NCBI RefSeq assembly: GCF_004010195.1
Contig: NC_057715.1
Span: forward strand, 18,775,950 to 18,839,949
Length of the DNA: 64,000 bases
Source of the DNA: Chiloscyllium plagiosum
Taxonomy: Eukaryota
Reading direction: 5' to 3'
Each line of letters begins with the position of its first letter. Position 1 is the stretch's first letter. The notes below the pieces were generated by a model. That model had not been told where the DNA came from. It was given only the letters and a program-made list of their open reading frames with translations, and searched no databases. A program made the position numbers and the translations under genes. Shown here piece after piece: positions 397 to 58,261 of the stretch.

Positions 397-468
397 GAAA
401 TGTTGAATCTCCTGCTTCTCAGATGCTGCTTGATCGGCTGTGCTTTTCCAGCACCACACATTTTGACT
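397..468 (+). mobile_element. Fragment of PLE family A pLTR (3' half of hammerhead plus tail)
   Basis: GAAATGTTGAATCTCCTGCT...GATGCTGC...GTGCTTTTCCAGCACCACAC aligns with 15004-15075. Confidence 0.8.
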
Positions 469-834
469 TTGTGTTCTAAAAGTGGCCTAAATAATGTCTT
501 GTATAGTTGCAACAAGACCTCCCAACTCCTATACTCAATGCACATCTTTGCATCAGGTGGGATTTGACCATTACTGCGCTTCAAGATCCCCCTTAGATTC
601 CTAGAATCTACCGATCTATTGAATAGACTCCATGGCGAAACAGCCAATGACCTCCATGTTAACTGTATAGTAATTTCATGTTTAATTGTGTTTAGATGGG
701 GTACCTCACCAGTGAGTCACTTGTTTTCCTATATAAAGGAGCAGTCAAACTGTTTGTATCCTTTAGAGGTGTATGTTTGTCTCTTTAAATAAGTGTATAA
801 GGACTAACCTTCAGTTCCATCATTCAGCAAATAA

Positions 835-2317
835 AATACCAAAAGAACTACTGTTGCTGGAAATCAGAAACAGAAACAGAAATTGCTGGAAAAGCTCAGC
901 AGGTCTGGCAGCATCTGTGGAGAGAAATCAGAGTTAATGATTTGGGTCCAGTCTTCAGAACTGATGATAGCTAGGATGATACAAAAATTGGTAGAGTTGC
1001 GGATAGTAGGGAGGATTGTCAGAGGAAACAGCAGGATATAGATCAGTTGGAGGTATGGGCAGTAAAATGGCAATGGGCGTTTAATCCAGACAAATGTGAG
1101 GTGATGCATTATGGAAGGTCATGCAGCGGTGGAAATTACACAGTGAATGGCAGAACGCTTAGGAGTATTGATATGCAGAGGGATCTGGAATTGCAGATTC
1201 ACAGATCACTGAACGTAGCATTGCATGTAGATAAGGTAGTAAAAAAGGCCTAGAGCATTCTTGCCTTCATTGGAAGGGGCATTGAGTATAAGGATAGACA
1301 AGCTATGCTGCAGCTTTGTAGAACTTTAGTTAGGCCACAATTGGAATATTGCATGCAGTTCTGGTCACCACACTACCAGAAGGATGTGGATGCTTTGGAG
1401 AGGGTATAGAAAAGGATATGTCTGATATGGGGGATTTTGGCTGTGAAGAAAGGTTGGATAGACTGGGCTTGTTTTCACTGGAATGCAGGAGGTTGAGGGG
1501 TGAACCTGATAAAAACGTATAAGATAATGAATGGCATGAATAGGGTGGAAAGTATGAGGTTTTCTCCCCAGGGTGGAGGGGGTCAATTACTAGCGGACAC
1601 AGGTACAAGGAGCAATGTTGGGAGGGGTCGGTGGTTGGGGGTGGAGTTTAAAAATGTGTGAGGCAAGTTTTTCACTCAAAGGGTGGTGAGTGCCCGGAAC
1701 ACACTGAGGAAGCAGTGGAATCAGACCCAATAAAAGCATCCAAGAAACACCAGGACAAATACATGAATAGGAAGTCTCTCATGCAGAGAGTGGCAGCAGC
1801 CTGGAACGCACTGTCAAAAGAGCAGCTTTGGTGGAAGCTGGCACGTTGGCGAGATTTAAGAAGTGTCTGGTTGGTTACATGAATAGGGAGGGTACAGAGG
1901 GATATGAATTGAATAAGGGCAGAAGGTTTGCTTTTTAGCTTAGTTGGGGCACGATGATTGGTACAGGCTTGCATGGCCAAAAGGCCTGTTCCTCTACGAT
2001 ACTTGCGTCCTATAAGTGAAGACAGTTTTAGTATGGAAGGGCAAAATATGTTGGCGCAGACTTGGTGGGCCGAATGGTCTGTTCCTGTGTTGTATTGCTC
2101 TTTGTCTTATTCTAGGAAAAAGTTGTTTATATGCAGAAGATAGCATAGGGTGAGGGGGGTAAGGAGTAAATGATAGGTAGAGATAGAGCCCAAAGGTGAA
2201 CAGTTGAACAGACAAATGGATGGATAATGGTAAGTCTAGGAGAATGAATATCTGCTAATGGGGACTATTAGTGGCTAACAATGGGTTGTATGCAATAGCA
2301 GACTGTGTGATAACAAA
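835..2317 (-). mobile_element. PLE family E pLTR (835-976 and 2112-2317) split by a CR1 insertion
   Basis: The reverse complement matches 6011-6110 and 39030-39125. CTAGGA is repeated at 971-976 and 2112-2117 around the CR1. Confidence 0.7.
977..2111 (+). mobile_element. 5'-truncated CR1 LINE (RT C-terminus and 3' UTR) containing a second CR1 3' end at about 1780-2000
   Basis: DDTK-like start, WAVKWQWAFNPDKCEVMHYG, LVRPQLEYCMQFWSPHY and WNAL motifs, with frameshifts. Confidence 0.9.
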
Positions 2318-2939
2318 ATTATCACATTTCCTTTTGGTGTCTACCAAACCCCTTTCAAAAAGGCCAACATTTCATGAGCTTTCTTAATTACTTACTTTGC
2401 TTGTGTGTTAACTTTCTGTATTTTTTTCTATGAGGGCATCTAAATCCCATTTAGTTTTTTACCATTTCAAAATATCCTGTTTTTCTGTTATTGCAGGTGA
2501 ATAAGATGATATTTTCATATGCGCCATCTTCTTGCCAAGTCAGTAACCTGCATTCTCAGCAGTCTCATTTTTTTTGTGCCCACATTATATTCTCATATGG
2601 CACTATTATTAGCAAACTGGATATATTGTTCTCTGATACTTCATCTAATTCCTTAAAATAAGTAGCTGAAAACTTAACATGAGGAGAGACAGAAGGAGCC
2701 AGATTAAAATAAAAATGTGAGGAAGGAGAAAGGGAACCATTGCAACATTCAAGTGAGTACAGAAATATGTGGAGAATGTGTGGTTGGAAAAATGGTGCAG
2801 GAGGGAAGGCCTTCAGATTCCTGGGACACTGGGACTAGCTCTGGGGGAGATTGCACCTGTCAAAGGCAGATGGCAAAGAGAGCTGGGACCAATGTTCACT
2901 TTGAGCTGCTCTGTACTCGAAGGATCTACTTAAGGCAAG

Positions 2940-3150: not shown

Positions 3151-3460
3151 TGGCAATCAAAGCACTGGCTTCTTGTTCTGGAAGTGACTGGTGCTTGTGG
3201 ATATTGGGGTACACGCAAAAGAGGAAAAAGATTAGCTTGGACTGGGTTCCTTTCTGGGATATTTTGTTAATAATGTTGGGGAAAGTTTGAACTTAATCAG
3301 CAGGAGTGTTGGAAACAGAAGAGAATATTAAAACATAATATCACAGTGAGAGAGACAGGTAGTACTAAAATAAATATTAGTAAGCTAATATGTGGAGATG
3401 AAAGAAGGAAGAAGGTAGTGAAGTCTAAATTAGGGTTATGTTGCCTGTATGTAAATATAT

Positions 3461-3588
3461 GAGGAGAAAGTGAGGTCTGCAGATGCTGGAGATCAGAGCT
3501 GAAAATGTGTTGCTGGAAAAGCGCAGCAGGTCAGGCAGCATCCAGGGAACAGGAGAATCGACGTTTCGGGCATAAGCCCTTCTTCAGG
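3461..3588 (-). mobile_element. Stand-alone ~128-bp family A element (hammerhead plus tail)
   Basis: Flanked by ATGTAAATATAT (3449-3460) and ATGTAAATGTAC (3589-3600). It interrupts the CR1 endonuclease start. Confidence 0.85.
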
Positions 3589-3590
3589 AT
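3557..3590 (-). ncRNA. Minimal type-I hammerhead ribozyme, family A (best-preserved core)
   Basis: Minus strand reads AUC CUGAAGA A GGGC-UUAU-GCCC GAAAC GUC/GAU. Stem I is AUC:GAU and stem III is the palindrome ACGU. Confidence 0.8.
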
Positions 3591-4831: not shown

Positions 4832-5948
4832 ACCAAGAGGAGTGTTATGCTGAATTTATATAGGACACTGGATAACTTACAGCTGGAGTATTGTGTACAG
4901 TTCTTGGTACCACATTTGGAAGAATGGTTCCGGGGATGAGAAACCTCAGTTATGAGGATAGTTTGGAGACTTTGGGACTGGTTTGCTTGAAGAGTAAGAG
5001 GTTGAGTGGAGATTTTAAAGAAGTTTTCAAATTCACGAGGTGTCGGGACACAGAAGATAGGGAGAAATCTGTTCCTGCTTGAACAAGGACCAAGAGTTTG
5101 AGGGCACACTTTCAAGTGGTTTGTATAAGAAACAACTATGAGATGAGAAAAAGAGAGGTTTTACACAGTGAGTGGCTGAGGTTTGCAAGGTACTGCCTGT
5201 AATTGTATTGGAGGTAGGTTCAAAGAAACAGTTTGTAGGTTATGGGGAAATAACAGGACTTTGGCACAAAATCAAAATGCTAAGAGAACGATTGCAAATA
5301 GAGTGGGCCAAATGGCCTGCCTCTTTACTGAAACAATTCTGTGATTCTGATCCTTGTGGCAACTCATAAGTAAGAATCTATCCACCTAAAAATGATTCAG
5401 TTACTCTCTGCTTTCAATCCTTCTATGATTAATTCATGCTACTGTATTGCCACCAACTCCAATGTGCCCTTACTATGACTAACAAGGTTGAGCGTGGCAC
5501 ATTATCAAATGCCTTTACTATTTCAACTTATTAGTTCACCAATGTTGGCTCTGTCTGGTCATAGTATGATTTTTTTCAAGTTCCTTGTTCATACTTAGTG
5601 AATAATAGATTTTACCATTCCTGACAACCGATAGGCTAATTGGCTATGGTTCCTTGTCTTCTTTTGTCTTCTTTTCTTGAATAATGATGTTTTGTTGGCT
5701 AACTTCTAATTTGTTCACACCATTCTTGAATCTGGGGAGTTTCGGAAGCTCACAGCTGCTGCACACATTGTCTTTGTAGCTGCTACTTTCGAATACTGGG
5801 ATGATGGCCATAAGATCCAGTTCCATTTAAATTCTTGATCCATTAATATCTCCAGTACCTTTGCATTTTTAACTATAATAACCTAATTTTCCTTACTATT
5901 TTTGTTAGTTAGCAAATCTTGATCAATGATACATGTCCTTATGTTATT

Positions 5949-6350
5949 GGGGAGGGGATTACCTAGTGGTATTACCTCAAAACTATTAATCTAGAAGTCT
6001 ACATAATGTTCTGAGGAAGGGTCACTGAACCTGAAATATTAACTCTGAGTCTCTTCACAGATGTTGCCAGACCTGCTGAGCTTTTCCAGCAACTTCTGTT
6101 TCCGTTGCTGATAATGTTCTGGGGAGACTTTGAATTTAATGCCAACTGTGGAATTGGGAGTCTAATGATGACCATGAAACTGTTGTTTCATATGGTTCAC
6201 TAATTCCCATCAGGAAAGGGAACTGCATCTTTACCTGTTCTGGCCTTCGTGTGACTCCGAATTCACAACAATGTGGTTGACTCTTAATTTGGGATGGGCA
6301 ATAAATATCAGCTGAGCCAGTGATGCCCATATCCCTTGAATGATTAAAAA
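5949..6350 (+). mobile_element. Short head-plus-tail derivative of the tRNA-headed LINE
   Basis: The 5' part matches 33043-33320. The 3' part GGGATGGGCAATAAAT...GAATGATTAAAAA matches the reverse complement of 34013-34075. Confidence 0.75.
6008..6110 (+). mobile_element. Stand-alone family E element starting with a hammerhead motif (6008-6043)
   Basis: GUU CUGAGGA AGGGUCACUGAACCU GAAA UAUU/AAC. TSD ATAATGTTCTG at 6003-6013 and 6111-6121. Confidence 0.8.
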
Positions 6351-7084
6351 CCTATAGTATTTGTGGGCTATTGATATTTAATTTCCATCATTTAATTTTA
6401 AATTTTGAGACTTTTGTGAATTCAAGACATTTTTAGAAGGACAAATACTAAACTAAGATGGTTGCAATGATCACCTGACCACAGATTGAGGCAAATCTAG
6501 CAGACCCATACAGTGTATACTAAGCTGGCTGAATTTCACTCAAAAACAATGAAATCAGACAAGTAAGTCAGCATGAAGAAATTTGCAATTCCTGCTTAAT
6601 TCATATTTGCTGGATAAGTCCACATATTGGACAATAAAGACTCTTGGCAGGTTATACAGCTGTGAAAAACAATGGATCTAGGCTCTGCCTCCTTCTGTCT
6701 GTTCTCTCTCCACTTCCACAGCCCACTGTTTCTCTTAATCCTTGAAGTCAGTGCCCAGTGAAAGAGAAACTTAGAAGAACAGTCATTCATGGAGAACTCC
6801 ATTTCACTATTGCTGAAGGAAATGTAATCATGGATTCAATTTTTCTTCCAACAGCTCCCAAACTAAGCCTCTAGGATCTTCAAATTGCTTTAACTCTCAT
6901 CTGTCTTTTTGTACTAGACACCTCTTCCACCTCTTTTTAAACTTATGACCAGTGTTATTCTGTGAGTTTGATGTCTTGTTCTTTTTTCTTGAGATTAATA
7001 CGTAGTAAACTTCCAATCTCTAGCTCAAAGAACAAGTTGGTGACTGGTTCCTTCATTTTGTTTAAGGAAACTATGCTTTCATTG

Positions 7085-7190
7085 AAATAATAACAGAAAA
7101 TGTTGGAGAAACTCAGCAGGTCTGGCAATATCAGTGGAGAGTGCAATAGAATTAACATTTCAAGTCTGAGATGACTTCTTTAGAACTGAA
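7085..7190 (-). mobile_element. Degraded family E pLTR fragment
   Basis: GAAACTCAGCAGGTCTGGCA...TTAACATTTCAAGTC...GACTTCTTTAGAACTG, with a decayed hammerhead core. Confidence 0.7.
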
Positions 7191-8139
7191 AGGGACAAGA
7201 GAACAACTGAACCACTGTATATGGTTTATACACTGTCAAAGGACACATGATAAGCCAATACAAAGAATAGACTAAACAGCATAAATTAAAAATCAGTGTC
7301 AATGATGTCCAAAATAGAGAGCCTCACAGGCCCAAGTAACTGTGACAAAGGAATGCTACATCTGTACAACTATAGGTCACTTCCAGAACATATGCCGAAA
7401 TAGGATGCAATTTCAGATCAGTAAAAGTCAAGTACCTAGTTATACAAAAATATTAGAGTAATTGAATTATAAAAGATACAATGTATTCCTTTGAGAAGTT
7501 GCTGATCCAGCTGAGTTACGTTTGGTAGAACCACTTTTACCAATGGACATCTTGTTGAGTGTAAGTCGGATGCTGGAGTGAGTTTTATTGTCTTGTAAGA
7601 TTGATTGCCATGGTTTAACAAACAGAAGGTACGGACTTACCAATCACATTGTCTGTTTTTATCCTGGAAAAAATCACCTGTAAATATGAGGTGATAATTT
7701 TGGAGAAGTAAAAATAAATTGCATTCACAAACAAAAATCATTTTGAAACTCACCAAACCATTTTGAAATAATAATGTCCACATAACGCTCCAATAGCAAA
7801 TAATAGAGAAGAGCTCAGCTAGGCAGGTCAAACGAAGAATACAGACACAAATAGAACCTTTATATCCACTGAACTGGCACAGATTGTATCAGATCTGAAA
7901 GCCCTAATTAAAGGTTGTTAACAGTGGCCTGTGAATAATGGTGACAGATTTAATCAGCATGAGAACAAATTAACTTCTTTCTTCTTGCTGATTTTCTTGC
8001 TTCCTCACTTGCCCTTCTGGAATTGATTAAACTTATGTCAGATCACCTCCAGTTCCTTATCCTTTGTTCACTCATGAGGGTGAAACTTGACATCAAGAAA
8101 AATCAGTTATTCAAATCCAGGTGAATTATATGGGCTGGA

Positions 8140-8530
8140 GTGATCCTTCAGTGAGTGTCAATTGTAACTTTGGGATTCTCAAAGTTTTGGATCCACATCC
8201 TACTTTAGAAATTGAGAGCAAAATCTAAGCTGACACTCTCAGAGTATTGCTGAGGGAGTGCTGCACTGTCTGAAGAGCTGCCTTTCAGATGAGATGTTAA
8301 ACTGAAGTCCCAAGCCCAATCAACTGGCTGTCTCAGATCCCACGGTTCCAGTTCAAAGAAGGGCAAGTGAGTTTTCTTTGACCAATGTTTATTACTCAAA
8401 CAGCCGTTATCATTCTTTTTGAAGCAGTTTGCTGCTGCTGTGTTCCCGTTTGAAACAGGGTGGACACTTTAAAAATACTTAATTGGTTATGAAGTGCAAT
8501 GGTTCATTCTGAACTCGTAAATGATGTGGG
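8140..8530 (+). mobile_element. Deu-domain SINE (SacSINE1/AmnSINE-like)
   Basis: GAGGGAGTGCTGCACTGTC...CTTTCAGATGAGATGTTAAACTGA...GATCCCA...AAGAAGGGCA core. Confidence 0.75.
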
Positions 8531-10129
8531 TTTTTCTTTCACTAACCTGCCATCTACATGCAGTGCTTTTGAGCAGATAAAGAAATAACAATCAGGAGGC
8601 AGGAAACCTGTTTAGTTATTTCCCATCCTTAACATAGGGCGTAGAGAATAAATACAATGCGTCTGTCTCTGACATACTTATCTCAACCCATTGCAAAGAG
8701 AGATTTTCAAGAATATTCAGGGGTGTGTCATATCATTTCTACAGTTTAAAGTAGTTTGTATTTTATATCTACTCATAATCTGAGAGCTTACATTTCAAAC
8801 TTCAGCTATTTAAGAGGGCTGCTCCTCTACTTGTGGTTGCATTTTAGCTCACCTTCCTGATCTAGGAAAGTATGTCAATGGACTGTGCTGCTTCTGGACA
8901 AGGCTGAATTAGCAGGTCCAGAATGAGCAGAGCCCTGTCGTTAGGGGAGCACTCTAGTTGACTACTTTTGTGGCATGGTATTGCCTGTATCTGGGTGGTC
9001 CTGAAGCAGGGCATGATATGCCAATGGGTATGCTGAAGATTGCATTTCATATGTCAATGACAATATCCTAACTAAATTGGTAAGCCCTTCTCTTTGGCTT
9101 ATTGAGTATATAAATCATGTGGGTATGTTTATGGTTCATTGCTCAAATCATTAGGTGTCCAATGGGCACTCAACATATAGTCCATATTTTATAAGAAAAT
9201 ACCTGTGAGGGTGATAGCACATCTACAAACATACCGCAGTGATCATCAGTTAGACATGGAGATCCAAACATTATGTCTGAGGTGGAACACCTTTTCTTTA
9301 GCTTCAGAAAAATGATATCTCATTCTCTGCTTCACCATTGAAATGTATGAAATGAACTGTACATTCAATATGTGAACTTGCTGTTTTGCATAATACACAA
9401 AAAGAATAGACAGATGATTTAAAGTCTAGGTACACATTTAAAGATGTGGTAGTATTACTTGCTATCTTGCTATCCGTCAACCAAATCTCACTGGCACTAA
9501 AAACGAACAATGACAAGTGTGCAGTTTCATTCTTACAGGTTGCAATTGTTGGAGCTTTACAACATGTTTTTGCTTTGCCATTCTCTCACATTTAATCTCA
9601 GCATGCTCTCCCTCATTTTCTTTTTCTGTACTAGGTTTGACATTGAATATACCTATTCTTAATTTTTAGTTTCCTTCAATATGTTGGATAATGTGATAAA
9701 CAGTTATTGCCACCTTCACTCAAGATCCAGATGTCCTTTCGGGAGCATCATGGTGTTTCCATTAGCCATCTCCAGCAATTTTCATTGATGTCAAGTGGGT
9801 GATGGGGAGCCGAACTAATTGACTCATCGTTTGTGATTCTGACACAGGACTTTCCAAGTCATTGACTTTGCATTTTCATTTGGTGATATTGTGCTGTCAA
9901 ATTTGGTGTTCAATTGCTGCAATCATAAAACTCCATCCCAGCTGAGGTTAGCTAATTTAATCTCTGATTAGGGATCAGACCTGCAAAATCTTTTCTCTCT
10001 GCTGTTGAAGAACAGAATAGGCACACCTTTACACTGAAAAGGGGAGGGGATTTACACAAATGTAAGATTTATCATCTTCATACAAAAGACATTGCATGTA
10101 CAGTTTGGGATCCTAAGAGAGCAGTTCAT

Positions 10130-10420
10130 GATTTGGTTTTGGACTCATAAAAAAGATTTGCATTCTATCCCTTGATTTTCATGACTTCAGGATATCACAA
10201 AGCATTTTGCAACCAGTGAGGTACTTTCTGAAGTGAAATTTTTTTTCAATGAGCCAACTCATGAGCCAATGTACACATAGCAATTCCCACAACCAGCAAT
10301 GCATTGATAACTAGGTAACCTGCTTTTTAGTTATCTTGATTGAGGAATAAATATTGGCCACAACGCTCGAGAGAACTCTGTGTTCTTCGTCAAAACAGAG
10401 CCATGGAATCTTTTAGCAAA
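10130..10420 (-). mobile_element. Deu-domain SINE fragment
   Basis: TTGATTGAGGAATAAATATTGGCCA...GAGAACTC...TCTTCGTCAAAACAGAGCCATGGAATCTTTTA. Confidence 0.7.
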
Positions 10421-10654
10421 TAGGGACAAGTGATGGGTAGGCATGGTGCACACCATTCACTTAAAGTTGCCTGCAAGAGCCAGAAATCATTTCGATGATT
10501 GGCTTGAATTTAATTTAACCCAGTGAACCTACTGCAAGATTTGAGAACTGATTGTTCAGGAAAATAAAGAAGTCTGTCTTGGCTTCATTGTTGGATTTAT
10601 TAGTGACCATCTTACATCTGTCACTCTTAGTCACTCGATAGTACAGAATATGCC

Positions 10655-10810
10655 TATTGCTGAAAAAGAGACATGACGTTGAAGTCTTTCATCTTGCACT
10701 CATGATGTAAGAATGCCACATTTTACAGGAAGCAATAATTTATACTGCATGAGAAAAGGATGCTGATTGGTTGGGAAGGAGATTCAATTGGATGAGAAAT
10801 TATTATGAGG
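10655..10810 (-). mobile_element. PLE family D pLTR fragment with decayed hammerhead
   Basis: Minus strand ATGAGTGCAAGATGAAAGACTTCAAC...ATGTCTCTTTTTCAGCAATA aligns with 56710-56836 joined to 58053-58097. Confidence 0.65.
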
Positions 10811-11939
10811 GAAATATTGTCCCTCAGGCTTTTATTCAATCCAAAAAAGGCACCATTCCTTCACAAACTCCTTTACTCCTAATGAAAACAGTTCCTGTTT
10901 ATAAACCTAAATTTGTTGTTGGTGTAGCACTTTAATAAGTGTTGCCCTGTCATGTAATTCCATCTATTATCTCTGTTTTTATCTTAGTAACAATAAGTCT
11001 GAAGCTATATCGAAACTATCCAACGTTTCTCATTTACTTAAACTTTCTTTCAAAGTTTACTTTGTGAGTAGATACCAAAAATTTTCGAAATGTACCCTTT
11101 TCTCCGTTGTCTTCCCAAATAACTGGCAAAACCTTTATCTCTGTGTTCCTAATACACTGAAGGCAGTTCCAAATTTCACCGGATGTTAGCGCAATCCTCG
11201 AATGATATGACCTGCTGTATCATCCTTAGAAGATCTTGACACGATATTAAGCTACAGTTAGAATCCAACACTTGAATGCGAAGCCACAGGGGAAATCTTT
11301 CAGACCCAAAGCATATCATTTGCAGCAAAGAGGCAGGTGTCAGCATCAGTGAAGCAGAGAACAATATAATATATTTAGTATCAGAAATGGAAACAAAATA
11401 CTGTCACTTCACCACTGGGAATGATGAGAGGAAATATCTTCGTCTTCAGCCCTGGAGAATGCTAATTTACTGACAGAATGAAATATGGTTTACCTACACC
11501 AGGTGCAGCCAATATGGGCCCCTGCTTCTGATATTAGTTTTGAATTGATGTCTTTGCTCTGCAGTTGAAGGATGGGAAACAGCTGTAACAGAAGGAGGAG
11601 GTAAAGCTTTTAATTAGAATTTGAAGTGCAGTCAATTCTCCTCATAACTTATTTAGCTTGCAATTTTCAACACTTATCAAGAGAATATTATTCACAGAAC
11701 TTTGAATGGCTATGCTGACACTTTCTTCTCAAGTTTGAGAACAGAAGGTATCTTCTACATGACAAGCTAATTAATCCAGAAGACTTTGTTCAGAGTTTTA
11801 CAAGTGTCCCCCCAGTTTTCCCTTTAATCGAGAAGTAGCTTATCTCACTGTCAGAACATCAATTCTCAAGAGATGTTTTATCAAAAGGAAAGTATGCTGT
11901 AAATATGAAACATTTTAAGCTATCAATCTTGCCCCAGCA

Positions 11940-12230
11940 AAAAGGTTGTTTTCCCTTGTGGCAGAATCGAGGACCAGAGGCCAAAGTCTCAAAGTCTCAT
12001 CCCACTGGGGTATAGGTAAGGAAGAATGTCTTCTCTCAGAGGGTAGTGAATCTGTGGAATTCTTTATCCCAGAGGGCTGTAAAGACTGGGTTATTGCTGA
12101 GATAGATTTTTAATCAGTAAGTTATTCAATGGTAATGGGAAAATGTAAAATGGAATTGAGGATGATCACATCCGCCATGATCTCATTGAATGGCTGAACA
12201 GACTGGATGGCCTAGTTCTGTTCCTACATC
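11940..12230 (+). mobile_element. CR1 3' fragment
   Basis: FSQRVVNLWNSL motif followed by 3' UTR. Confidence 0.8.
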
Positions 12231-12492
12231 ACTGGATGAGTGCTTCCGATGCCCAGATTAATGCTCTGGGGATAAAAACAGGAAGTGTGGGAAGTACTGG
12301 AAGCATATGTGGAGACAGAAGCAAAGTTAGGTTTTGGGTATGGGTACATGTGTTCACACCCCACTATGATTGCCAGTGGAATATTTTATAAAAATCCAAA
12401 TTAACTAATCTTATTTTTGTGAAGTTATTGCATAAATGCAATGCGAATTATATTATGTCATGTTGGAAAAAAAACAATAAAAATTCAATGGA

Positions 12493-12952
12493 TTACATCA
12501 GACAAACTAGCAGGAAACTTGCCACCAGGATAAATGAACACCAACTAGCCAGCAAAAGACATGACCGGCTATCACTAGTTTCTATACATACAGATGAAGA
12601 AGGACACCACTTTGACTGGGACAACACACACATCCAAGGACAGGTGAAACAAAGACATGCACAAGAATTCTTCCAGGCATGGCATTCTAACCAGAACTCC
12701 ATCAAAAAACACATTGATTTAGACTCTATCTACCTTCCCTTGAGAAAAAAGAGCCGGAAATGATATCACCAACCTTAAGAAACCAAAGCCTATAAATAGA
12801 GAGGTGGGACATACCACCAGCATCACTGGAAACTCTCACTGATGATGTTACCTAGTATGATGACGAAATGTCTGAAAACAAATCTTCGAGCTCAGTGAGC
12901 TAATTTACATACTTATCATCAACATGAGCTACAAATATTCTCAAAAATCGTT
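12493..12952 (+). mobile_element. PLE family B: GIY-YIG endonuclease C-terminus and pLTR
   Basis: YIRQTSRKLATRINEH...HHFDWD...QEFFQAWHS. Possible degenerate TSD AATTCA(A)TGGA at 12482 and 12953. Confidence 0.9.
12836..12875 (+). ncRNA. Minimal type-I hammerhead motif, family B
   Basis: UCA CUGAUGA UGUUACCUAGUAUGAUGAC GAAA UGUC/UGA, with stem I UCA:UGA. Confidence 0.75.
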
Positions 12953-14660: not shown

Positions 14661-15108
14661 GCCTGGAGGAAGAAAGTCTCATCTTCTGCATCAGGACCCC
14701 CCAACTCCAGGGCATCAATGTGGATTTCACCAGTTTCCTCATTTCCCCTCCCTCCACCTTATTCCAGATCCAACCTTCCAAATCGCATCTCATGACCTGT
14801 CCTACCTGTCCATCTTCCTTCCCATGTATCCGCTCCACCCTCCTCTCTGACTTATCACCTTTACCCCTACCTCCGTCTACCTATCGCACTCTCAGCTACC
14901 TCCCCCTACCCCCCACACATCAACCCCACACACCTCCCCCTTCCCATTTATCTCACCACCCCCTCAGCTTACAAGCCTCATTCCTGATGAAGGGCTTTTG
15001 CCCGAAACATCGATTCTCCTGCTCCTCGGATGCTGCCTGACCTGCTGTGCTTTTCCAGCACCACACCCTTGACTCTAATCTCCAGCATCTGTGGTCCTCA
15101 CTTTTGCT
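14661..15108 (+). mobile_element. PLE family A: GIY-YIG C-terminus and complete pLTR
   Basis: LEEESLIFCIRTPQLQGINVDFTSF, then a pyrimidine-rich UTR, hammerhead and tail. Confidence 0.9.
14980..15015 (+). ncRNA. Minimal type-I hammerhead motif, family A
   Basis: AUUC CUGAUGA A GGGC-UUUU-GCCC GAAAC AUC/GAUU. Confidence 0.75.
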
Positions 15109-38013: not shown

Positions 38014-38179
38014 TTCAGCAGAAATGTCCATTTTCCTGCTCCTCGGATGCTGCCTGATTTGCTGTGCTTTTCCAGTGCCACACTCTCAATTCCGAATAAA
38101 CCTGTTGGACTATGAGCTGGTGTTGCATGATTTTTTACTGTATCTTGATTTTTTTCTCTCTTTGTTTGGTCCCTTTCCA

Positions 38180-45854: not shown

Positions 45855-47150
45855 TGATTCAGTGATGGATGTCACTGGCTAGGCCATCGTTTATTGCTCA
45901 AATGCTAATTGCTCTTGGGTAGGTGATGATGGGCTGTCTTCATGAACCATTGTAGTCCATTCAGTGTAAGTACACTCACAGCATTGTTGTGGAGAGAGTT
46001 CCAGGAATTTGTCCCAGTGACGGTGAACAGACTAAGATACAGTTCCAGGCCAGGGTGGCGTTTGATTTGGAGGATAACTTACTGATGTGGTATTGTTACC
46101 TTGAATCTGCTGCATTAGTTCTTCCAGGCAATAGAGGTCTTGAATTTGTTTTTTTTTGCATTCATTCATGGGATATGATGTCGATGGCTGGGCCAGCATT
46201 TATTGACCATCTCTAGTTGCTATTGAGAAGCTGGTGGTGAGCTGCCTTTTTTGAACTGCGGCAGTCTGTGTGCTGTAGGTAGACTCCTCAATGGTGTTCG
46301 GGTGGGAGTTCCACATTTTGTCTCAGCAAGATTGAAGGAACGGTAATATATTTTCATGTCAGATGGTGAACTTGCCATTGGCTGGTGCTCCCCTGTCCTT
46401 CTATATGGAAATGGTTGTGTGTTTAGTAGGTGCTGTCTGAGGATCTTTGGTGAATTTCTGCAATGCATCATGCACACTGCTTTTACTGAGTGTCAGGAGC
46501 TGAAGGTTCATGGATGTGGTGCATCTAAGGCTGGCGAAAGTGAGGACTGCAGATGCTGGTGATTAGAGTTGAGAGTGCGGTACTGGAAAAGCACAGCAGG
46601 TCAGGCAGCATCCGCGGGGCAAATGCTATTTCGGGCAAAAGCCCTTCATCAGGAAGCATCGAAGGAAGTCTTGGCAAATTGTGGTTGGTATATACTACAA
46701 CCACGTTGTGCCAGTAGTGGAGGGATTGAATGTTTAAGATGATGTATGAGGTGCTGATCAAATGATTTGCTTTCTCCTGTTTGGTGTGGAGCGTTTTGAC
46801 TGCTGTTGGAGCTTCACTCTGACTGGAAAGTGAAGTTATTCCATAACATTCCTGACTTGTAGATGATGGACAGGTACTGGGGAGTCAAGACGTGAGTTAC
46901 TTGCTGTAGAATCCTTACTTTTAACATGCCAGAGTATTTTTATGGCTGGTTCAGTTATATTCCTGGTTTCAGGATGTTGATAACAGAGGATTCAATGATG
47001 TTTATGCCATTGAATGTCAAGGGGAGCTGGTTAGACTCTTCTTAGTTGGAGATGAATATTACTTGGCACTCGTTTGGCCTGAATTTTACTTGGTACTTGG
47101 TATCCCAAGCCTGAATACTGCCCAGTTCTTGCTACATATAGCCATAGACG
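45855..47150 (-). mobile_element. Two nested or tandem 3' fragments of the tRNA-headed LINE
   Basis: Colinear with 34013-34820. MHCRNSPKILRQHL in ORF 46220-46477. Confidence 0.8.
46531..46655 (-). mobile_element. Stand-alone 125-bp family A element (hammerhead plus tail)
   Basis: Minus strand TTCCTGATGAAGGGCTTTTGCCCGAAA, with the cleavage-site region disrupted. TSD GCATCTAAGG (46521-46530) / GCATCGAAGG (46656-46665). Confidence 0.85.
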
Positions 47151-48654: not shown

Positions 48655-48925
48655 TTAGCTGCAGCTTAGTTGGTAGTAATTTGCCACTGAGTCAGAAGAT
48701 TCAAGTCCCAGTCCAGGACTGGAGCAAAACAATTGAGTTTGACATTATAGTGTAATGCATTAGAAGTACCTAATTTTTTCAGATAAGATGTACTTGATAC
48801 CCCTCAAGTCTGCCTCTGCAGCCGGTTGAAAAGATATCACCATATACTTTATTGAGGAACAACAAATGAATATTGTTGAAAAGAGAGATACATTGCTAAA
48901 CTTTTTCATCTCACAGCCATCAAGA
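48655..48925. mobile_element. Deu-SINE (plus, 48655-48870) followed by a family D pLTR remnant (minus, 48871-48925)
   Basis: TAGCTGCAGCTTAGTTGGTAG head and TCAGATAAGATG core. Minus strand TCTTGATGGCTGTGAGATGAAAAAGTTTAGC is a decayed hammerhead. Confidence 0.6.
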
Positions 48926-49969
48926 ACTGGATGAACTTGGGAACATTCGGGAGGCAGAGACAGTCATAGGTAAAAGCTCCAATGAGGTGGTTACTCCTAG
49001 AAATGAAGATAGTTGGGTGACTGTTAGAAAAGGTAAAAAGCAATCAGTGCAGGTATTCCCTGTGGCCATTCCCCTGTATAACAAGTATACCGTTTTTAAT
49101 ACTGTTGGGGGGCTCGACTTACCAGGGGTAAGCCATTGGGTATAGGTCTCTGTCAAAGAGTTTGTCCCTGTTGCTCAGAAGGGAAGCAGGAAGAGGAGCA
49201 GAGCATTAGTCATTGGGGACTCCTTAGTTAGGGGGAACAGATAGCTGATTTGATGGGAACTAAAGATACCCGCAGCTGGTGTGTTGCCTCCCAGGTGGCA
49301 GGCTCTGTCATATCTCGGATTGTGTTTTTGGGATCCTTGAGGGTGAGGGGGAGCATCCCCACATTGTGGTTGACATTGTAACCAACGACATAGGCAGGAA
49401 TAGTGATAAGGGGATGGAAGGCAGTTATTCAGGGAGCTGGGGGGAAGCTTAGAGCTAGAACAAATAGAGTTGCTATCTCTGATTTGTTACCTGTACCACG
49501 GGGCAAGGAATAGGGAGAGAGAGCAGTTAAACACGTGACTACAGGAATAGTGCAGGAGAGAGGGATTCAGATACCTGGATGATTGGAGCTTATTCTAGGG
49601 TGAGTGGGACGTCTACAAACAGGATGGTCTATACTTGAACCAGAGGGATACCAATATTGTGGGGGGGAGATTTGCTGATGTTCTTTGGGTGGGTTTAAAC
49701 TAACTCAGTAGGGGGATGGGAACCTGAATTGTAGCTCCAGTGTACAGGAAGTTGAGAGTAGTGAGGTCATGAATAAAGTTCCAAGGTTGCAGGAGTGTTC
49801 TGATAGGCAGGAAGGTGGTTTGAAGTGTGTCTACTTCAACGCCAGGAGCATCCGGAATTAGGTGGGTGGATTTGCAGCATGGGTTGGGACTTCGATGTTG
49901 TGGCCATTTCAGAGACATGGATGGAGAAAGGAGAGGAATGGTTGTTGCAGGTTCTAGATGTTTCAGTAA

Positions 49970-50644
49970 CTGGATGTAAGTTTGTTTGTTGAGCTGGAAG
50001 GTTCGTTTTCAGATGTTTCATCACCATTCTAGGTAACATCATCAGTGAGCCTCCATTGAAGCACTGGTGTTAGTGACCCACTTTCTATTTATGTATTTAG
50101 GTTTCCTTGTGTTGGTGATGTCATTTCCTGTGGTGATGTCATTTCCTGTTCTTTTCCTCAGAGGGTGTTTAATGGGGTTCATGTCAATGTGTCTGTTGAG
50201 TTGGAATGCCATGCTTCTAGGAATTATCGTGCAATTCCCTATTTGACTTGTCCTAAGATGGATGTGCTGTCCCAGTCAAAGTGGTGTCCTTCCCTATCTG
50301 TATATAAGGACACTAGTGAGAGTGGGTCATGTCTTTTTGTGGCTAGTTGATGTTCATGTATCCTGGTGGCTAGTTTTCTGCCTGTTTGTCCAATGTAGTG
50401 TTTCTTGTAGTTCGTGCAAGGTATTTTGTAAATGACATTAGTTTTGCTTGTTGTCTGTATAGAGTCTTTCAAGTTTGTTAGCTGCTGTTTTAGTGTGTTG
50501 GTGTGTTTGTGGGCTACCAAGATGCCAAGAGGTCTGAATAGTCTGGCAGTTATTTCCGAGATGTTTTTGATGTAGGGGAGAGTGGCCAGGGTTTTTTGAT
50601 GCGTTTTGTCTGCTTATTTGTGTTTGTTACTGAGAAACTCGCTA
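49970..50644 (-). mobile_element. PLE family B (GIY-YIG endonuclease and pLTR) inserted in CR1
   Basis: NVIYKIPCTNYKKHYIGQTGRKLATRIHEH. Perfect TSD ATGTTTCAGTAA at 49958-49969 and 50645-50656. Confidence 0.93.
50009..50048 (-). ncRNA. Hammerhead motif, family B
   Basis: UCA CUGAUGA U GUUACC-UAGAAU-GGUGAU GAAAC AUC/UGA. Confidence 0.72.
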
Positions 50645-51549: not shown

Positions 51550-51817
51550 ATTCCTGATGAAGGACTTATGCCTGAAACATTGATTCTCCTGCTCCTTGAT
51601 GCTGCCTGACAAAAACAGCCTCAAGACCCTCAGCCTTTCCTCATAAGACGTTCCCTCCATACCAGGTAATGTTCTGGTAAATCTCCTCTGCACCCTTTCC
51701 AATGCTTCCACAACCTTTCTATAATGTGATGACCAGAACTGTACGCAATACCAAGTGCTTTTCTAGCACTACACTCTCGACCCTGATCTCCAGCATCTGC
51801 AGTACTCATTTTCTCCT
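51550..51817 (+). mobile_element. Family A hammerhead-headed short element carrying an inverted CR1 patch (51611-51754)
   Basis: ATTCCTGATGAAGGACTTATGCCTGAAACATTGATT...CCTGAC[patch]GTGCTTTTCTAGCA...TTCTCCT. Confidence 0.85.
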
Positions 51818-53546
51818 AAGATTAGACCAGTCAAGGACACTATTGGGAAGTTGTGCGTGGAATCGAAAGAGATAGGAGAGGCATTAAATGAATATTTTTT
51901 CTCAGTATTTACACAGGAAAAAGACAATGTTGTCAAGGAGAATAATGAGATACAGGCTATTAGACTAGACGGGATTGCGGTTCACAAGGAGAACATGTTA
52001 GCAATTCTGGAAAGTGTGAAAATAGATAAGTCCCTTGGCCTGGATGGGATTTATCGTAAGATTTTCTGGGAAGCTAGGGAGGAGATTGCAGAGCATTTGG
52101 CTTTGATACTTATGGCATCATTGTCTACAGGAATAGTTCCAGAAGACTGGAGGATAGCAAATGTTGTCCCCTTTTTCAAGAAAGGGAGTAGAGAAAACCC
52201 TGGTAATTATAGACCAGTGAGCTTTACTTCTGTTGTGGGCAAAGTTTTGGAAACGATTCTAAGAGACAGGATTTATAATAATCTAGAAAGGAATCATTTG
52301 ATTAGGGATAGTCAACATGGTTTTGTGAAGAGTAGATCGTGCCTCACAAACCTTTTTGCATTTTTTGTAAACGTGACCAAACAGGTGGATGAGGGTGAAG
52401 CAGTGATTTGGTGTATATGGATTTCAGTAAGGTGTTTGATAAGGTTCCCCATGGTAGGCTATTGCAGAAAATACGGAGGCACGGGATTGAGAGTGATTTA
52501 GCAGTTTGGATCAGAAATGGGTGAGCTATAAGAAGACAGAGGATGGTGGATGATGGGAAATGTTCATCCTGGCTAGAGGTAACTGAACTGCAAGGATTTT
52601 TTGGGGGGCCACTACTGTTTGTCATTTTTATAAATGACTTGGATGAATGGCTAGAAGGATGGTTTAGTAAATTTGAGATGACACTAAAGTTGGTGGAGTT
52701 ATGGACAATGTGGAAGGATGTTGCAGGTTACAGAGGGACATAGATAAGCTGCAGACCTGGGCCAAGCGGTGGCAAATGGAGTTTAATGTGGATAAGTGTG
52801 AGGTGATTCACTTTAGAAGGAATAACAGTACTGGGCTAATGGTAAGATTGGTAGTGTGGATGAGCAGAGAGATCTCAGTGTCCATGTGCATAGATCCCTG
52901 AAAGTTTCAACTTAGGTTGATAGTGTTGTTAAGAAGATGTACGGTGTGTTCACTTTTATTGGTAGAGGGATTGAGTTTCGGATCCATGAGGTTATGTTGC
53001 AGCTGTACAAAACTCTGGTGTGGCCGCACTTGGTATTGCATACAGTTCTGGTCGTCACATTATAGGAAGGTTGTGGAAGCATTGGAAAGGGTGCAGAGGA
53101 GATTTACCAGAACATTTCCTGGTATGGGTCTTATGAGGAAAGGCTGAGGGTCTTGAGGCTGTTTTTGTTAGATAGAAGTAGGTTAAGAGGTGACTTAATA
53201 GAGGCATACAAAATGATCAGAGGTTTAGATAGGGTGGACCGTGAGAGCCTTTTTCCTCAGATGGTGATGGCTAGCAGAAGGGGCCATAGCTTTAAATTGA
53301 GGGGTGATAGGTAGAGGACAGATGTCAGAGGTAGGTTCTTTACTCAGAGAGTGTTAAGGGTGTGGAATGCTCTGCCTGCAACAGTATTGGACTTGCCAAC
53401 ATTAAGGGCATTTAAATGGTCATTGGATAAACATATGTATGATAATGGAATAGTGTAAATTAGATGGGCTTTAGATTGGTTTTACAGGTTGCTGCAACAT
53501 CAAGGGCTGAAGGGCATGTACTGCGCTGTAATGGTCTATGTTCTAT

Positions 53547-56219
53547 TGTCGGGTAAATGCCAGCATTGAGGCAGGGGAATAGCTTGGCTAGGGGAGCAGC
53601 AAGATGTGGAGCACAAGTCTTCAATGCTATTACCGGAATGTTATCAGGGCCCATAGCCTTTTCAGTATACAGTATCTCCAACTGTTTCTTGATATCAAGT
53701 GAAGTGAATTGAATATACTGAAGACTGGTATCTGTAATTCTGGGGACAACTGGAGGTAGCTGAGATGGATCATCCACTTGACACTTTTGGCTGATGATTG
53801 TTGCAAATGCTTCAGCCTTATCATTTGAGCTGCTGCACTGGGATCTTCCATCATTGAGGATGGAGATATTTGTGGAGCGTCCTCCTCAAGTGAGTTGTTC
53901 AATTGTCCACCACCATTCTCGACTGGATGGGGCAGGACTGCAGAGCTTAGATCTGATCCGTTGGTTGTGGGTTCGCTAAGCTCTGTCCATCACTTGCTCC
54001 TTGTGCTGTTTGGCATGCAATTAGTTTTGTTTGTTTGATACCTCATTTTTTGGTATGCCTGGTGCTGCTCCTGCCATGCTGTCCTGCACTCTCCATTGAA
54101 CCATGGTCGATCCCCTGGCTTCAATGGGGGATATGCCAGACCATGAGGTTACATATGGCGCTGGAGTATAATTCGGCTGCTGTTGATGACCCACAGTGCC
54201 TCATGGTTGCTCGATCGGTTCGAAGTCTGTCCCATTTAGCATGGTGCTAGTGCCACACAACATGATGGAAGATATTCTCAATGTGAAGAGGGGACTTCAT
54301 CTCCAAAAGGACTGCGTGGTGGTCACTCTTACCGATACTGTCACGGACAGATGCAAGTGCAGCTTGCAGATTGGCAAGGATAAAGTCAAATATTTTCTTC
54401 ACGCTTGTTAGTTCCCTCACCACCTGCTGTGGACCCAGTCCAGCAGTTATGTCCTTTAAGACCCAACCAGCTAGGTCAGTAGTGTTTCTGCCAAGCCACT
54501 CTTGGTGGTGGGCATTGAAATCCCCCAACCAGAGTACATTAGTGCCCTTGCCATCCTCAGTGCTTCCTCCAAGTGTTGTTCAACATGAAGGAGTATCGAT
54601 TCATCAGCCGAGGGAGGATGGTATGTGGTAATCAGGAGATTTCCTTGCTCATGTTCAACCTAAAGCCATGAGACATCATAGGGTCTGAGTCAATGTTGAA
54701 GCCTTCCAGGGCTAAATAGTCTGAAGCCTCCACCTTTGCTGGGTCTGTCTTTCTGGTAGGACAGGGATGGTGTCTGGGACATTGTCTCTGAGGTGTGATT
54801 TTATGAGTATGACTATGTCAGACTGTTTTTTGACTAGTCTGTGAGACAGCCCTTCGAATTTTGGCACTAACCCTCAGATGTCTATGAGGAAGATTTTGCA
54901 GAATCGACAGATTTCTGCCGTTCTCCTTTCTGGTGCTTTGGACAGTGATCTGTCCGGTTTCATTTCTTTGAAGAAATTAATATAAATGAGTGGCTTGCTG
55001 AACCATTTCACAAGGCAGATGAGAGTCAACTATATTGCTGTGTGTCTGGAGTCACATGTAGGCCAGAGCAGTGGAGAATGGCAGATTTCCTTCCCTGAAG
55101 GACATTAATGAACAGATGGGCTTTTCTGACATTTAACAATGTTTTCATGGTCATCAGTAGATTCTTAATTCCAGATTTTTAAAAATTGAATTAAAATTCC
55201 ACCATCTACCGTAGTGGGTTTTGAACTGTGGTCCCCAGAACATTAGCTGAATTTCTGGATTAACAGTTGAACAATATATGACACAGAGATTGGTGGAGTA
55301 GCAGAAAGCATAAGGGACTGTCAAAGAATACAGGAGGATATAGATAGACTGGAGAGTTAGGCGGAAAAGTGGCAGATGGATTTCAATCCAGACAAATGTG
55401 AGGTGATGCATTTAGGCAAGACTAATTCTAGAGCAAATTATACAATGAATGGAAGAGCCTTGGGAAAAGTTGATGGGCAGAGAGATCTGGGAGTGCAGGT
55501 CCATTGTACCCTGAAGGTTGCTGCACAAGTGGATAGAGTGGTCAAGAAGGCATATAGTATGCTTGCCTTTATTGGACGGGGTATTAAGTATTAGAGCTGG
55601 CAAGTCATGTTAAAATTGTACAAGACATTGGTTTGGCTGCATTTAGAATACTGTGTACAGTTCTGGTCGCCACATTACCAAAACGATGTGGATGCTTTGG
55701 AGAGGGTGCAGAGAAGGTTTACGAGGATGTTGCCTGGTATGGAAGGTGCTGGCTATGAAGAGAGGTTGAGTAGGTTTGGTTTGTTTTCATTAGAAAAACG
55801 GAGATTGAGGGGGGACTTGATTGAGGTTTACAAATCATGAAGGCTATAGACAGGGTGGATAGAGACAAGTTTTTTTTCCCAGCGTGAAGGATTCAATAAG
55901 GAGAGGTCATGCTTTCAAGGTGAGAGGTGGAAAGTTTAAGGGGGATACATGTGGCAAGCACTTCACATAGAGGGTGGTGGGTGTCTGGAATGCGTTGCCA
56001 GCAGAGGTGGTAGAGGCAGGCACGGTAGATTCATTTAAGATGCGTCTGGACAGATGCATGAGTAGGTGGGGAGCAGAGGGATACAGATTCTTAGGAATTG
56101 ACTGTCAGGTTTAGATAGTACATTTGGATTGGCTCAGGCTTGGAGGGCCGAAGGGCTTGTTCCTGGGCTGTAAATTTTCTTTGTTCTTTGTAATAATACC
56201 ACTATGCCATTGCCTCCCC
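53547..56219 (-). mobile_element. tRNA-headed CR1-group LINE 5' half, with the head split by a CR1 insertion
   Basis: GDFNAHHQEWLG, SDHHAVL and KAMGPDNIP..LAAPLAKLF motifs. B-box GTTCAAAACCC near 55216-55226 and A-box TGGCATAGTGG at 56199-56210. Confidence 0.9.
55277..56191 (+). mobile_element. 5'-truncated CR1 LINE, relatively young
   Basis: FNPDKCEVMHLG, LYKTLVWLHLEYCVQFWSPHY and TGTTCTT tail. Flanks AACAATA / AATAATA. Confidence 0.93.
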
Positions 56220-56836
56220 TTAAGTACAAATTTAAGATAAGTCAAGCATATAATGTGAGTCATTATGTTTGCTGGAAGCAACATACATTCATATGCAAGG
56301 GTGCATTCTCTACAAACAAGAGAAATATGCTCTGGTTTGGGAGGCTAGAACCAGGAGACACAGTCTCAGGATTCAGGGTAGATCATTTGGGGCTGAGATG
56401 AGAAAACAAATCTTCACTCAACAGGCACTGAACTTGTGGAATTCTCTGTCAACAAAGGCTGTGGAAGTCAAGTCACTGAATACATTCAAGAAACATAGAT
56501 ACATTTTTGGATTTTAAAGACATCAAGAAGTATGGGGAAAAGCATGACTATGACATTGAAACAGAGGATTAGCCATGATCCAATTGCATGGTGGAGCAAG
56601 CTTGAAGGGCTGAATGGTCTACAGCTGCTCCCGGTTTCTATGTTCTATGCTTAATCCTTGCACTTTCTTCAAATACTTGGGTATTTAGGAGTCTACAACT
56701 CCCCACTTCTCCATGGCAACACCTCAGCCAATCGAAATCTGCTTCCAATAAATCAGCACCCTTTTCTCCTACAGTATAAATTGTTGTGATAGGTTGAAAT
56801 AAGGCATTATTGTGTTTGTCTTGATGAGTACAAGAC

Positions 56837-58052
56837 GGCTTTCAGGAAAACTCCATACCGCCCTGTCACATTCGGTGCTGCAAGACGTGACAGAGTGTGG
56901 ACATGGATACCACCATTACACGTGGGGACACCTCCCACCTTGTACGTGGCCAGTACTGATGTGACTCAGCCAACGTTGTCTATCTTATGCGTTGCAGGCA
57001 AGGATGCCCGGAGGCATGGTACATTGGGGAAACCGAGCAAAGGCTACGGCAACGGATGAATGGGCACCGCACACCATTCAACAGACAGGAGTGTTTTCTC
57101 CCAGTTGGGGAACACTTCAGCGGCCCAGGACATTCATCCTCGGACCTTCGGGTGACCATCGTCCAAGGTGGACTTCAGGGAAGGCAGCAGCGAAAAGGGC
57201 CGAGCAGAGGCTGATAGCTAAGTTCCGTACCCATAGGGAGGGCCTCAACCGGGACCTTGGGTTCATGTCACACTACAGGTGACCACCATTGCACTACACA
57301 AACACAGACTCTCCTACAAACACACACACAGACACTCCCATACACACACATACACATAGACACACGTATACACAGACATGCACACAGACACTCACGCACA
57401 CCCCTACAGACACACACACTCACACATGCATCCTCTCACAGACTTAGACCACTCTACACTCACAAACACACACATATACACTCTCTCACACTCACAACCC
57501 CCTACCCCAGACACACACCCACACACAAAAACCCACACACTAAAACCCACATGCACACATATACATATACGTTTGTGGGGTGAGTTTGTACTTGCAGAGT
57601 TACATTGTACTTTGCTCATAAACTGCATGCATTCATGTAAGACTCTGTTAACTCACTTTTTAAATTAGAATCAGTTTAAATGTTATGGCACAGACAGAGA
57701 ACACAGGGGGCTAACACCTTCAACATATTATCTGCCTAACACAAATTGTTACAGTTAACCTGAGAATGTAACTTTTAAAAAAATGTCTTGTGATTTACAT
57801 ATGAAAAAAGTGAAACTATCATGGTCATTCTAACAGATGAAAGACTCAACAAACAATCAAGGTATTTTTCAATGTATAATTTCAGTTACATCACACTGTA
57901 AACTTTTGCTATAAATTCTGTGTCTTATAATTGTGTCCTCCACAACCATCTGATGAAGGAGCTAGTGTGTTTCCAAATAAACCTGTTGGACTATAACCTG
58001 GTGTTGTGTGATTTTTAACTTTGTACACCCCAGTCCAACACCATCTCCAAAT
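56837..58052 (+). mobile_element. PLE family C (Neptune-like): Cys linker, GIY-YIG, CA-rich UTR, pLTR
   Basis: NVVYLMRCRQGCPEAWYIGETEQRLRQRMNGHR...AEQRLIAKFRTHREGLNRDLGF. TSD CAAGAC at 56831-56836 and 58053-58058. Confidence 0.92.
57293..57570. repeat. Degenerate (CA)n tract inside the PLE 3' UTR
   Basis: Seen directly. Confidence 0.9.
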
Positions 58053-58261
58053 CAAGACAAAAGGCATTGGCACGATGTCTGTCTTCTCAGAAATATTCTA
58101 AACAGCAAGATCAAGAATAGGTGAGTTATACACAGTGTTTTGTCTAATATTTGTCTCTCCATCAACATTACAGAAACAGGTTGTCCAGCCGTTACCACAT
58201 TGCCGTAGTAGGAGCTTGCTGTTTGCAAGCTGGCTGCTGCATTACCAGATCGCAACAGTGA

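Follow-up and report, generated by a model that had tools for sequence, protein, structure and literature searches.

We propose, with high confidence, that the many hammerhead-like motifs in a 64,000-nucleotide stretch of the genome of the shark Chiloscyllium plagiosum (contig NC_057715.1, positions 18,775,950 to 18,839,949 of the forward strand; hereafter the window) are minimal type-I hammerheads in the pseudo-long terminal repeats (pLTRs) of about four lineages of Penelope-like elements (PLEs). The copies are truncated and mostly damaged; they are likely inactive and likely derive from uncleaved RNA. The arrangement of hammerheads in PLE pLTRs has been known since 2014, and what is added here is the shark families. 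An earlier note on this DNA had listed 17 motifs or remnants in five families, A to E, and had read them as minimal type-I hammerheads of PLE pLTRs. That reading is borne out for Families A, B, C, and E, and the high motif density within the window is real.

A motif or remnant is present at all 17 of the sites named beforehand, within about 35 nucleotides of the coordinate given (minus-strand sites had been listed by their low-end coordinate). Strict patterns exceed chance by a wide margin. CUGANGA followed by a stem II of at least 3 bp and GAAA occurs 9 times in the window, against a mean of 0.73 and a maximum of 4 in 15 dinucleotide shuffles. The full core, including A15.1-N2-U16.1-H17, occurs 8 times against 0.11 (maximum of 2; 200 shuffles), and the full core with a stem I of at least 3 bp occurs 4 times against 0.005 in shuffles. 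When one core mismatch is allowed, the excess is weak (31 versus 14.5, with a maximum of 29 in shuffles), and so remnants were accepted on family homology only, not on the motif. The CUGANGA-GAAA-NUH cores described for the sites are whole in 8 of the 17, namely five of Family A (3587, 14984, 22745, 23740, and 51554), both of Family B (12839 and 50045), and one of Family E (6011; sites are named here by the position of C3 where it is given); each of the other nine sites is a half motif, is split, or has core damage.

Profile searches with nhmmer found six A- or E-type remnants beyond the earlier list. A seed copy necessarily matches the profile built from it, and so the E-values used are those of non-seed and cross-family matches. 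One remnant belongs to Family A (396-470; non-seed E = 1e-14), and five are E-like, at 865-975, 39020-39125, 17688-17782 (0.02), 17878-17956 (0.0024), and 18526-18599 (1e-5). A further profile match at 12272-12355 (E = 0.012) has no core remnant and was left uncounted. The window holds one gap of 765 bases (22809-23573). The copies are as follows, with RT standing for reverse transcriptase.

3460-3588, minus strand: Family A short insertion of 129 bp, the best hammerhead; C3 3587, H17 3560; stem II GGGC/GCCC, stem III ACGU; starts 1 nucleotide before the core; 11-bp target-site duplication.
14661-15107, plus strand: Family A copy with the end of the GIY-YIG-side coding tail and the 3' untranslated region; C3 14984, core intact; stem III ACAU (decayed).
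22619-23830, both strands: Family A inverted insertion over the assembly gap; C3 22745 (minus) and 23740 (plus); stem III AUGU in both; a tail of 36 nucleotides at just one end; exact target-site duplication of 15 bp.
36454-38089, plus strand: Family A Neptune-type element within a Family C pLTR (12-bp duplication); inverted tail piece 36454-36500; RT C terminus and GIY-YIG remnant 36527-37453; 5' half of hammerhead 37691 split off by a dispersed repeat of about 310 bp, 3' half from 38021.
46531-46655, minus strand: Family A short insertion; C3 46652; starts 3 nucleotides before the core; deletion of U16.1; 10-bp duplication.
51553-51816, plus strand: Family A short copy; C3 51554; stem II damaged; duplication weak; pLTR broken by another insertion at about 51606-51758.
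396-470, plus strand: Family A remnant, 3' half only.
12434-12950, plus strand: Family B, Poseidon-type; GIY-YIG remnant 12434-12754; TATAAAT at -48; C3 12839, H17 12872; stem III AUGU.
49970-50644, minus strand: Family B, 5'-truncated Poseidon-type; RT end and GIY-YIG 50646-50242; C3 50045; stem III ACAU; 12-bp exact duplication.
36396-36453, plus strand: Family C motif; C3 36409, U4C, GAGG/CCUC, AGCU; pLTR resumes at 38090-38141.
56837-58052, plus strand: Family C Neptune-type; a Cys linker with GIY-YIG at 56837-57282 is followed by a CA-rich tract, TATAAAT at -40, and the hammerhead 5' half 57950, with the 3' side of stem II and GAAA gone through an internal deletion.
18370-18491, plus strand: Family C short insertion; 16-nucleotide inverted piece, then the motif 3' half from 18386; 12-bp duplication.
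56721-56836, plus strand: Family D left piece; CCAAT, TATAAAT, then GUC-UUGAUGA-GU-ACAAG-AC.
58053-58100, plus strand: Family D right piece on the far side of the inserted C element; the 6-bp duplication CAAGAC does not reach significance by itself.
10640-10799, minus strand: Family D copy with a damaged 5' core box and homology to 56723-56836 (E = 1.7e-9).
48797-48929, minus strand: probable Family D short insertion of 133 bp; leave-one-out E = 0.11 (weak); starts 6 nucleotides before the core; 10-bp duplication.
6008-6110, plus strand: Family E short insertion; C3 6011, H17 6040; GUU/AAC, AUAU; 14-bp duplication overlapping the core start.
7075-7190, minus strand: Family E copy; C3 7183; core damaged, stem II unpaired.
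38400-39125, plus strand: PLE RT remnant (about 38400-38770), pyrimidine-rich tract, and deleted Family E motif 39035.
865-975, minus strand: Family E remnant; C3 958; 5' side of stem II deleted.
17688-17782, minus strand: old E-like short insertion; core damaged; starts 17 nucleotides before the core; 11-bp duplication.
17878-17956, plus strand: old E-like remnant, 3' part; profile match.
18526-18599, plus strand: old E-like remnant, 3' part; profile match.

The structure around the core was parsed by hand in 12 copies. Family A keeps stem II GGGC/GCCC intact in 5 of 6 copies and stem III ACGU in 1 of 6, and its stem I is weak (two pairs, U-U, and one pair in 3 of 6). The three perfect stem I pairs of 3587 do not represent the Family A state, since two of the bases lie inside the target-site duplication; 3557-3590 had been put forward as the copy to test, and its third stem I pair is owed to flanking DNA within that duplication. 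Family B has a 6-bp stem II with one mismatch or wobbles, a 3-bp stem I in both copies, and an AUG that opens stem II, 28 nucleotides before the cut site. In Family C, 36409 combines stem II GAGG/CCUC and stem III AGCU with a CCGAUGA core (U4C) and two of three stem I pairs, while stem II opens with GGAGC in 57950 and closes with GUCC in 18386, the latter again with stem III AGCU. The last two copies suggest a second subfamily with swapped stem II pairs, and the GAGG..CCUC descriptor given for the family fits one copy of three. Family E has stem I GUU/AAC (3 bp in 6011) and stem II GGGUC, with GACCC in another copy.

Families A and E have a common downstream pLTR, as evidenced by cross-family nhmmer matches (E = 1e-9 to 1e-11) and by alignment. 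Because they share the sequence downstream of the motif, the motif columns are homologous and two differences between the families are compensatory, both C-G to U-A, at the stem I base and at the fourth pair of stem II. No compensatory change was found within the Family A copies. With A and E as sister pLTRs, the families make about four lineages; the five proposed earlier were an overcount, as D is also not a demonstrated complete hammerhead. G10.1-C11.1 with an unpaired 5' nucleotide recurs in A, B, C, and E, as G-U in the CpG-decayed 51554, 50045, and 6011, and stem III lacks a loop III and is palindromic as ACGU (3587), AGCU (36409 and 18386), or AUAU (6011). Judged from sequence, A, B, C, and E have every testable sequence feature of PLE minimal hammerheads, and the idea that the stems diverged and still pair holds for these four families and not for D.

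Relative to canonical type-I hammerheads (the Rfam hammerhead families; Schistosoma Sm-alpha), the shark motifs have the same CUGANGA, GAAA, and UH but no loop III, a short stem I, and no recognizable contact between loops I and II. The metazoan PLE minimal hammerheads of Cervera and de la Pena (2014; PMC4209133) have the same type-I order, the same palindromic 15.2-16.2 without loop III, and the same G10.1-C11.1, with an extra nucleotide between 9 and 10.1 as in A, B, C, and E. They likewise fall into multiple families within a genome, have stems that covary, occur mostly as lone truncated copies, and include Poseidon and Neptune elements of fish. Stems are shorter in A, C, and E (4-5 bp in stem II and 2-4 bp in stem I) than in Schistosoma in that study (7-8 and 4-5 bp), and Family D, unlike those hammerheads, lacks the 9.1 nucleotide and C3. 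In the anole Poseidon element PAc (Frangieh 2024; PMC11167929), an AUG lies 26 nucleotides before the cut site, versus 28 in Family B; in contrast to PAc, all copies here are truncated or broken and known from sequence alone, and A, C, and E are Neptune-type.

Coding remnants tie four of the families to PLEs. Six database proteins were searched against the window with tblastn, and a profile of five PLE proteins was run over six-frame windows; the Neptune and Poseidon labels denote likeness to proteins P0010 and P0011, which carry no clade name, plus a Cys linker before GIY-YIG in A and C, rather than positions on a tree. Poseidon-type GIY-YIG sequence lies directly upstream of both Family B motifs (E = 6e-38 and 1e-76). 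A Neptune-type GIY-YIG at 56837-57282 (E = 3e-61) leads through a CA tract to the Family C motif 57950, and a Neptune-type RT end and GIY-YIG at 36527-37453 precede the Family A motif 37691 (E = 7e-4 and 0.002). An RT remnant at about 38400-38770 (profile E = 4e-4; pairwise E = 3e-5) lies upstream of the Family E motif 39035. The claim that in every family PLE coding sequence directly precedes at least one copy thus stands for A, B, C, and E, in the last case through 39035 only, a copy outside the earlier list, and does not extend to D. The proteins best matched by the coding remnants in the window come from gene models of Hemiscyllium, Chiloscyllium, and Stegostoma, as expected of carpet-shark DNA. 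When the Family A coding piece was searched against proteins, none of 51 candidates reached E <= 0.001, and Pfam on 25 open reading frames of the window gave one weak GIY-YIG, two RVT_1 (51767-52498 and 34616-35113), and two weak unrelated matches.

Insertion anatomy is that of endonuclease-positive PLEs: 5' truncation, an adjacent inverted 5'-truncated copy, and a one-ended tail are present in 22619-23830 and 36454-38089, the two inverted Family A units, each of which has its tail on one end only, and an inverted piece also occurs at 18370. Motifs 22745 and 23740 mark opposite ends of a single inverted insertion, with one end point at +90 from C3 and the other at +126; their treatment as separate events (22714 and 23736) was rejected in favor of one inverted unit with an exact 15-bp duplication. 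The unit 36454-38089 stops at +88, and its tail is carried by its inverted 5' piece. Craig 2021 describes PLE insertions with an optional 30-40-bp tail on one end, and Frangieh 2024 explains the one-ended tail by two internal RT start sites. Tested in 22 units against random flank pairs, with flank windows picked after inspection, target-site duplications reach a null p <= 0.02 in nine.

The 5' ends of the short copies point to the template. Five of nine well-bounded units (3587, 46652, 6011, 48923, and 17765) begin between -17 and +6 of C3, as do 7 of 12 when three weakly bounded units are added, and none of the 12 begins at the cut site (+28 to +34 from C3). Under a rough geometric-truncation model, with the interval chosen post hoc, the clustering has a p from 2e-3 (7 of 22, mean length of 200) to below 1e-6. 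The short copies retain core sequence lying 5' of the cut site, which would imply templates that had not been cleaved, and these copies were likely made from uncleaved RNA. In vitro, the main substrate of the anole element is unprocessed RNA, and its hammerhead cuts only with the protein present (Frangieh 2024). TATAAAT or CATAAAT lies 38 to 48 nucleotides upstream of the core in all five B, C, and D copies checked, and one of two Family E copies has a weaker TATA-like match. In the two long Family D copies, 56728-56781 (plus) and 10738-10791 (minus), two CCAAT boxes and TATAAAT precede the motif in a layout like that of an RNA polymerase II promoter.

A mechanism can be pictured from these ends. 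As in Frangieh 2024, the element protein would nick the target and start reverse transcription within the RNA about 75 to 125 nucleotides past the motif, and synthesis would then run backwards through the motif. If the template started in the pLTR just upstream of the motif, as we infer, the enzyme would run off after about 95 to 135 nucleotides and leave short copies. Cleavage in the parent RNA would require a dimer joined by stem III pairing and probably help from protein, a situation in which single genomic copies would rarely find themselves.

Most copies are likely relics, not working ribozymes. Stem III is ACGU in only one of 11 parsed A, B, and E copies and ACAU, AUGU, or AUAU in nine, and the change from ACGU to these forms is the pattern of CpG decay. 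Across six Family A copies, 10 of the 36 CpG cells differ, compared with 16 of the 192 cells elsewhere (p = 0.002). Only two of the eight whole-core copies have a Watson-Crick palindromic stem III (3587 with ACGU and 6011 with AUAU), so that 15 of the 17 sites lack either a whole core or such a stem. Single minimal hammerheads did not cleave and dimers cleaved weakly in Cervera and de la Pena (2014), and dimer cleavage is also credited to Lunse et al. in a review (PMC6765202).

Three rival accounts of the motifs can be weighed against relics of uncleaved RNA. The very large ribozyme reservoir foreseen earlier would have a sizeable share of dispersed copies cutting host transcripts, which we regard as quite improbable. 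Eight copies in 63 kb do keep all core nucleotides, and non-CpG core sites in Family A are somewhat less changed than the flanks, at p = 0.08; stem III, however, is damaged in six of the eight, same-strand tandem pairs of motifs are absent, and the 16 tandem-repeat rows in the window leave every motif uncovered. The best copy, 3587, has a dimer hammerhead fold of -15.1 kcal/mol versus -24.1 for its best dimer and -16.4 for two monomers, a weak test because the model ignores core contacts, and published single minimal hammerheads stayed uncleaved, the anole one needing its protein. The idea of a reservoir of working ribozymes is therefore not upheld. That motifs are chance matches or an assembly artifact has a negligible probability and is refuted for A, B, C, and E. 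The one-mismatch pattern is only about twice chance and one unit spans the N gap, but strict counts are at least 70-fold over chance, family homology runs 60 to 400 nucleotides past the motif, the zebra-shark gene model P0011 carries the B motif in translated form, and at least half of the words sampled from 4900-12000 occur in eight public runs from two studies, one of which may be the source. No RNA data set was among those listed for 4900-12000, which speaks neither for nor against any of these accounts.

The third account, which we consider unlikely, takes the short 95-135-bp copies as self-propagating, nonautonomous, retrozyme-like elements rather than run-off products. Five of the nine well-bounded units do start just before the motif with similar lengths, and hammerhead-bearing nonautonomous PLE derivatives have been published, including one from a chondrichthyan. 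The non-LTR retrozymes of Li et al. 2026 (10.64898/2026.07.22.740005) have the same type-I hammerhead in short noncoding PLE-derived units, but these are tandem repeats with a motif in each unit, and no tandem array here carries the motif; tandem retrozymes were rejected as the source of the copies for this reason. The same start position also recurs across families A, D, and E and weakly in C, the window also has long A, C, D, and E copies that carry the same pLTR, and the short C and D copies omit the upstream promoter-like boxes.

Several results weigh against our reading of PLE-borne relics copied from uncleaved RNA. Duplications are not significant in 13 of the 22 units tested, and the flank windows were, as stated, chosen once the sequence had been inspected. 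No TATA-like box lies upstream of Family A in the three copies checked, which leaves the proposed start site unsupported for the family with the most short copies; a Drosophila PLE is described as using a TATA-less internal promoter. The E-values of the Family A coding link are modest, and the PLE profile over six-frame windows found nothing upstream of any Family D copy. An Rfam covariance search of the window returned two matches at E <= 5, neither of them a hammerhead. The non-CpG core of the six Family A copies differs in 1 of 60 cells versus the 16 of 192 elsewhere, which leans against neutral decay of the core and is not significant; the figure is biased because having the motif was how the copies were selected, and two of them stem from a single event. 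Finally, none of the three Family D copies has a whole core.

Family D may be a U3 core with a 2-bp stem II. Both of its 5' halves read CUUGAUG, not CUGAUGA, with a stem II of at most GU/AC, and its 3' parts would allow, and do not demonstrate, a palindrome of six bases and a stem I of GUC/GAC. Perreault 2011 reports that 2-bp stem II is common in natural hammerheads and that C3-G8 covaries to U3-A8, and the passages used do not mention U3 opposite G8. That D is no hammerhead but a repeat resembling the core by chance is a real, if minor, possibility: there are the missing whole cores, the altered 5' box, the stem II of 2 bp at most, the lack of upstream PLE coding sequence, and a third copy that is only a weak homolog (E = 0.11). 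Set against it are a layout like that of B and C, with TATAAAT 38 to 46 nucleotides upstream, a duplication-flanked 133-bp unit that starts 6 nucleotides before the box as A and E units do, and the frequency of 2-bp stem II in natural hammerheads. A 19-base Family D pattern matched metagenomes four times, in every case outside a hammerhead context and at least twice in open frames, and these matches were taken as chance; the shuffle count for the pattern (3 versus 0.17) is circular and was unused. The GIY-YIG at 56837-57282 was rejected as Family D's own, being downstream of the D half-motif and ending in a C pLTR, with D homology resuming at 58053. The Family C element 56837-58052 is best read as an insertion into the Family D motif.

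Other features of the window bear on the same elements. PLEs are nested, with A in C (36396-38141) and C in D (56721-58100), and a dispersed repeat lies within the A37691 motif; PLE pLTRs may be preferred insertion targets, and PLEs are said to insert into or beside earlier copies (PMC6765202). All three Family C copies have AATAAA about 10 to 15 nucleotides past the cut position (36446-36451, 57975-57980, and 18409-18414, plus strand), possibly a polyadenylation signal. The shark gene models P0001-P0003, P0009, and P0012 (CCDC62, PPP1R12A-like, and another) terminate in PLE GIY-YIG sequence in translated form and are either exonized PLE fragments or annotation artifacts. Decayed RT remnants of long interspersed nuclear element type at 51767-52498 (plus), 34616-35113 (minus), 30761-31815, and 53577-54587 are unrelated to the hammerhead sites. 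A dispersed repeat with a tRNA-like head at 33045-33129 (plus; Rfam tRNA E = 2.2, below threshold), with related pieces at about 55003-55267 and 6122-6284, is probably an old tRNA-derived short interspersed nuclear element. A 48-bp unit is repeated 3.1 times at 40292-40443, and at 41154-41282 a dispersed repeat contains an exact tandem duplication of 64 bp, possibly recent or an assembly slip.

By extrapolation only, 8 cores in 63 kb would correspond to some 400,000 to 500,000 in 3 to 4 Gb, about 100,000 of them with an intact palindrome; the genome-size range is that of the whale shark, and one flagged window is no random sample. Cervera and de la Pena (2014), with descriptors that differ from ours, list about 4,000 hammerheads in coelacanth and about 9,000 in Xenopus. 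The survey of Li et al. 2026 includes one chondrichthyan. We found no account of shark minimal-hammerhead counts or of 5' ends at the motif, in a search outside most subscription papers and the Repbase and Dfam entries; the supplements of Li et al. 2026 may hold shark counts, and the supplementary alignments of Cervera and de la Pena (2014) may hold a D-like family.

A larger picture is possible, if on balance doubtful: a genome with several hundred thousand core-intact hammerheads, many more than the counts published for vertebrates, short copies that record the copying of uncleaved RNA from a start just upstream of the ribozyme, and in Family D an amplified natural variant in which U3 faces G8, stem II has 2 bp, and stem III is a palindrome of 6 nucleotides. 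If Family D proves active, it would be a core variant that standard descriptors miss. If the pattern of 5' ends holds genome-wide, thousands of short copies would reveal which RNA was copied in vivo, and this would matter all the more because the role of the hammerhead in PLEs is still open (Craig 2021).

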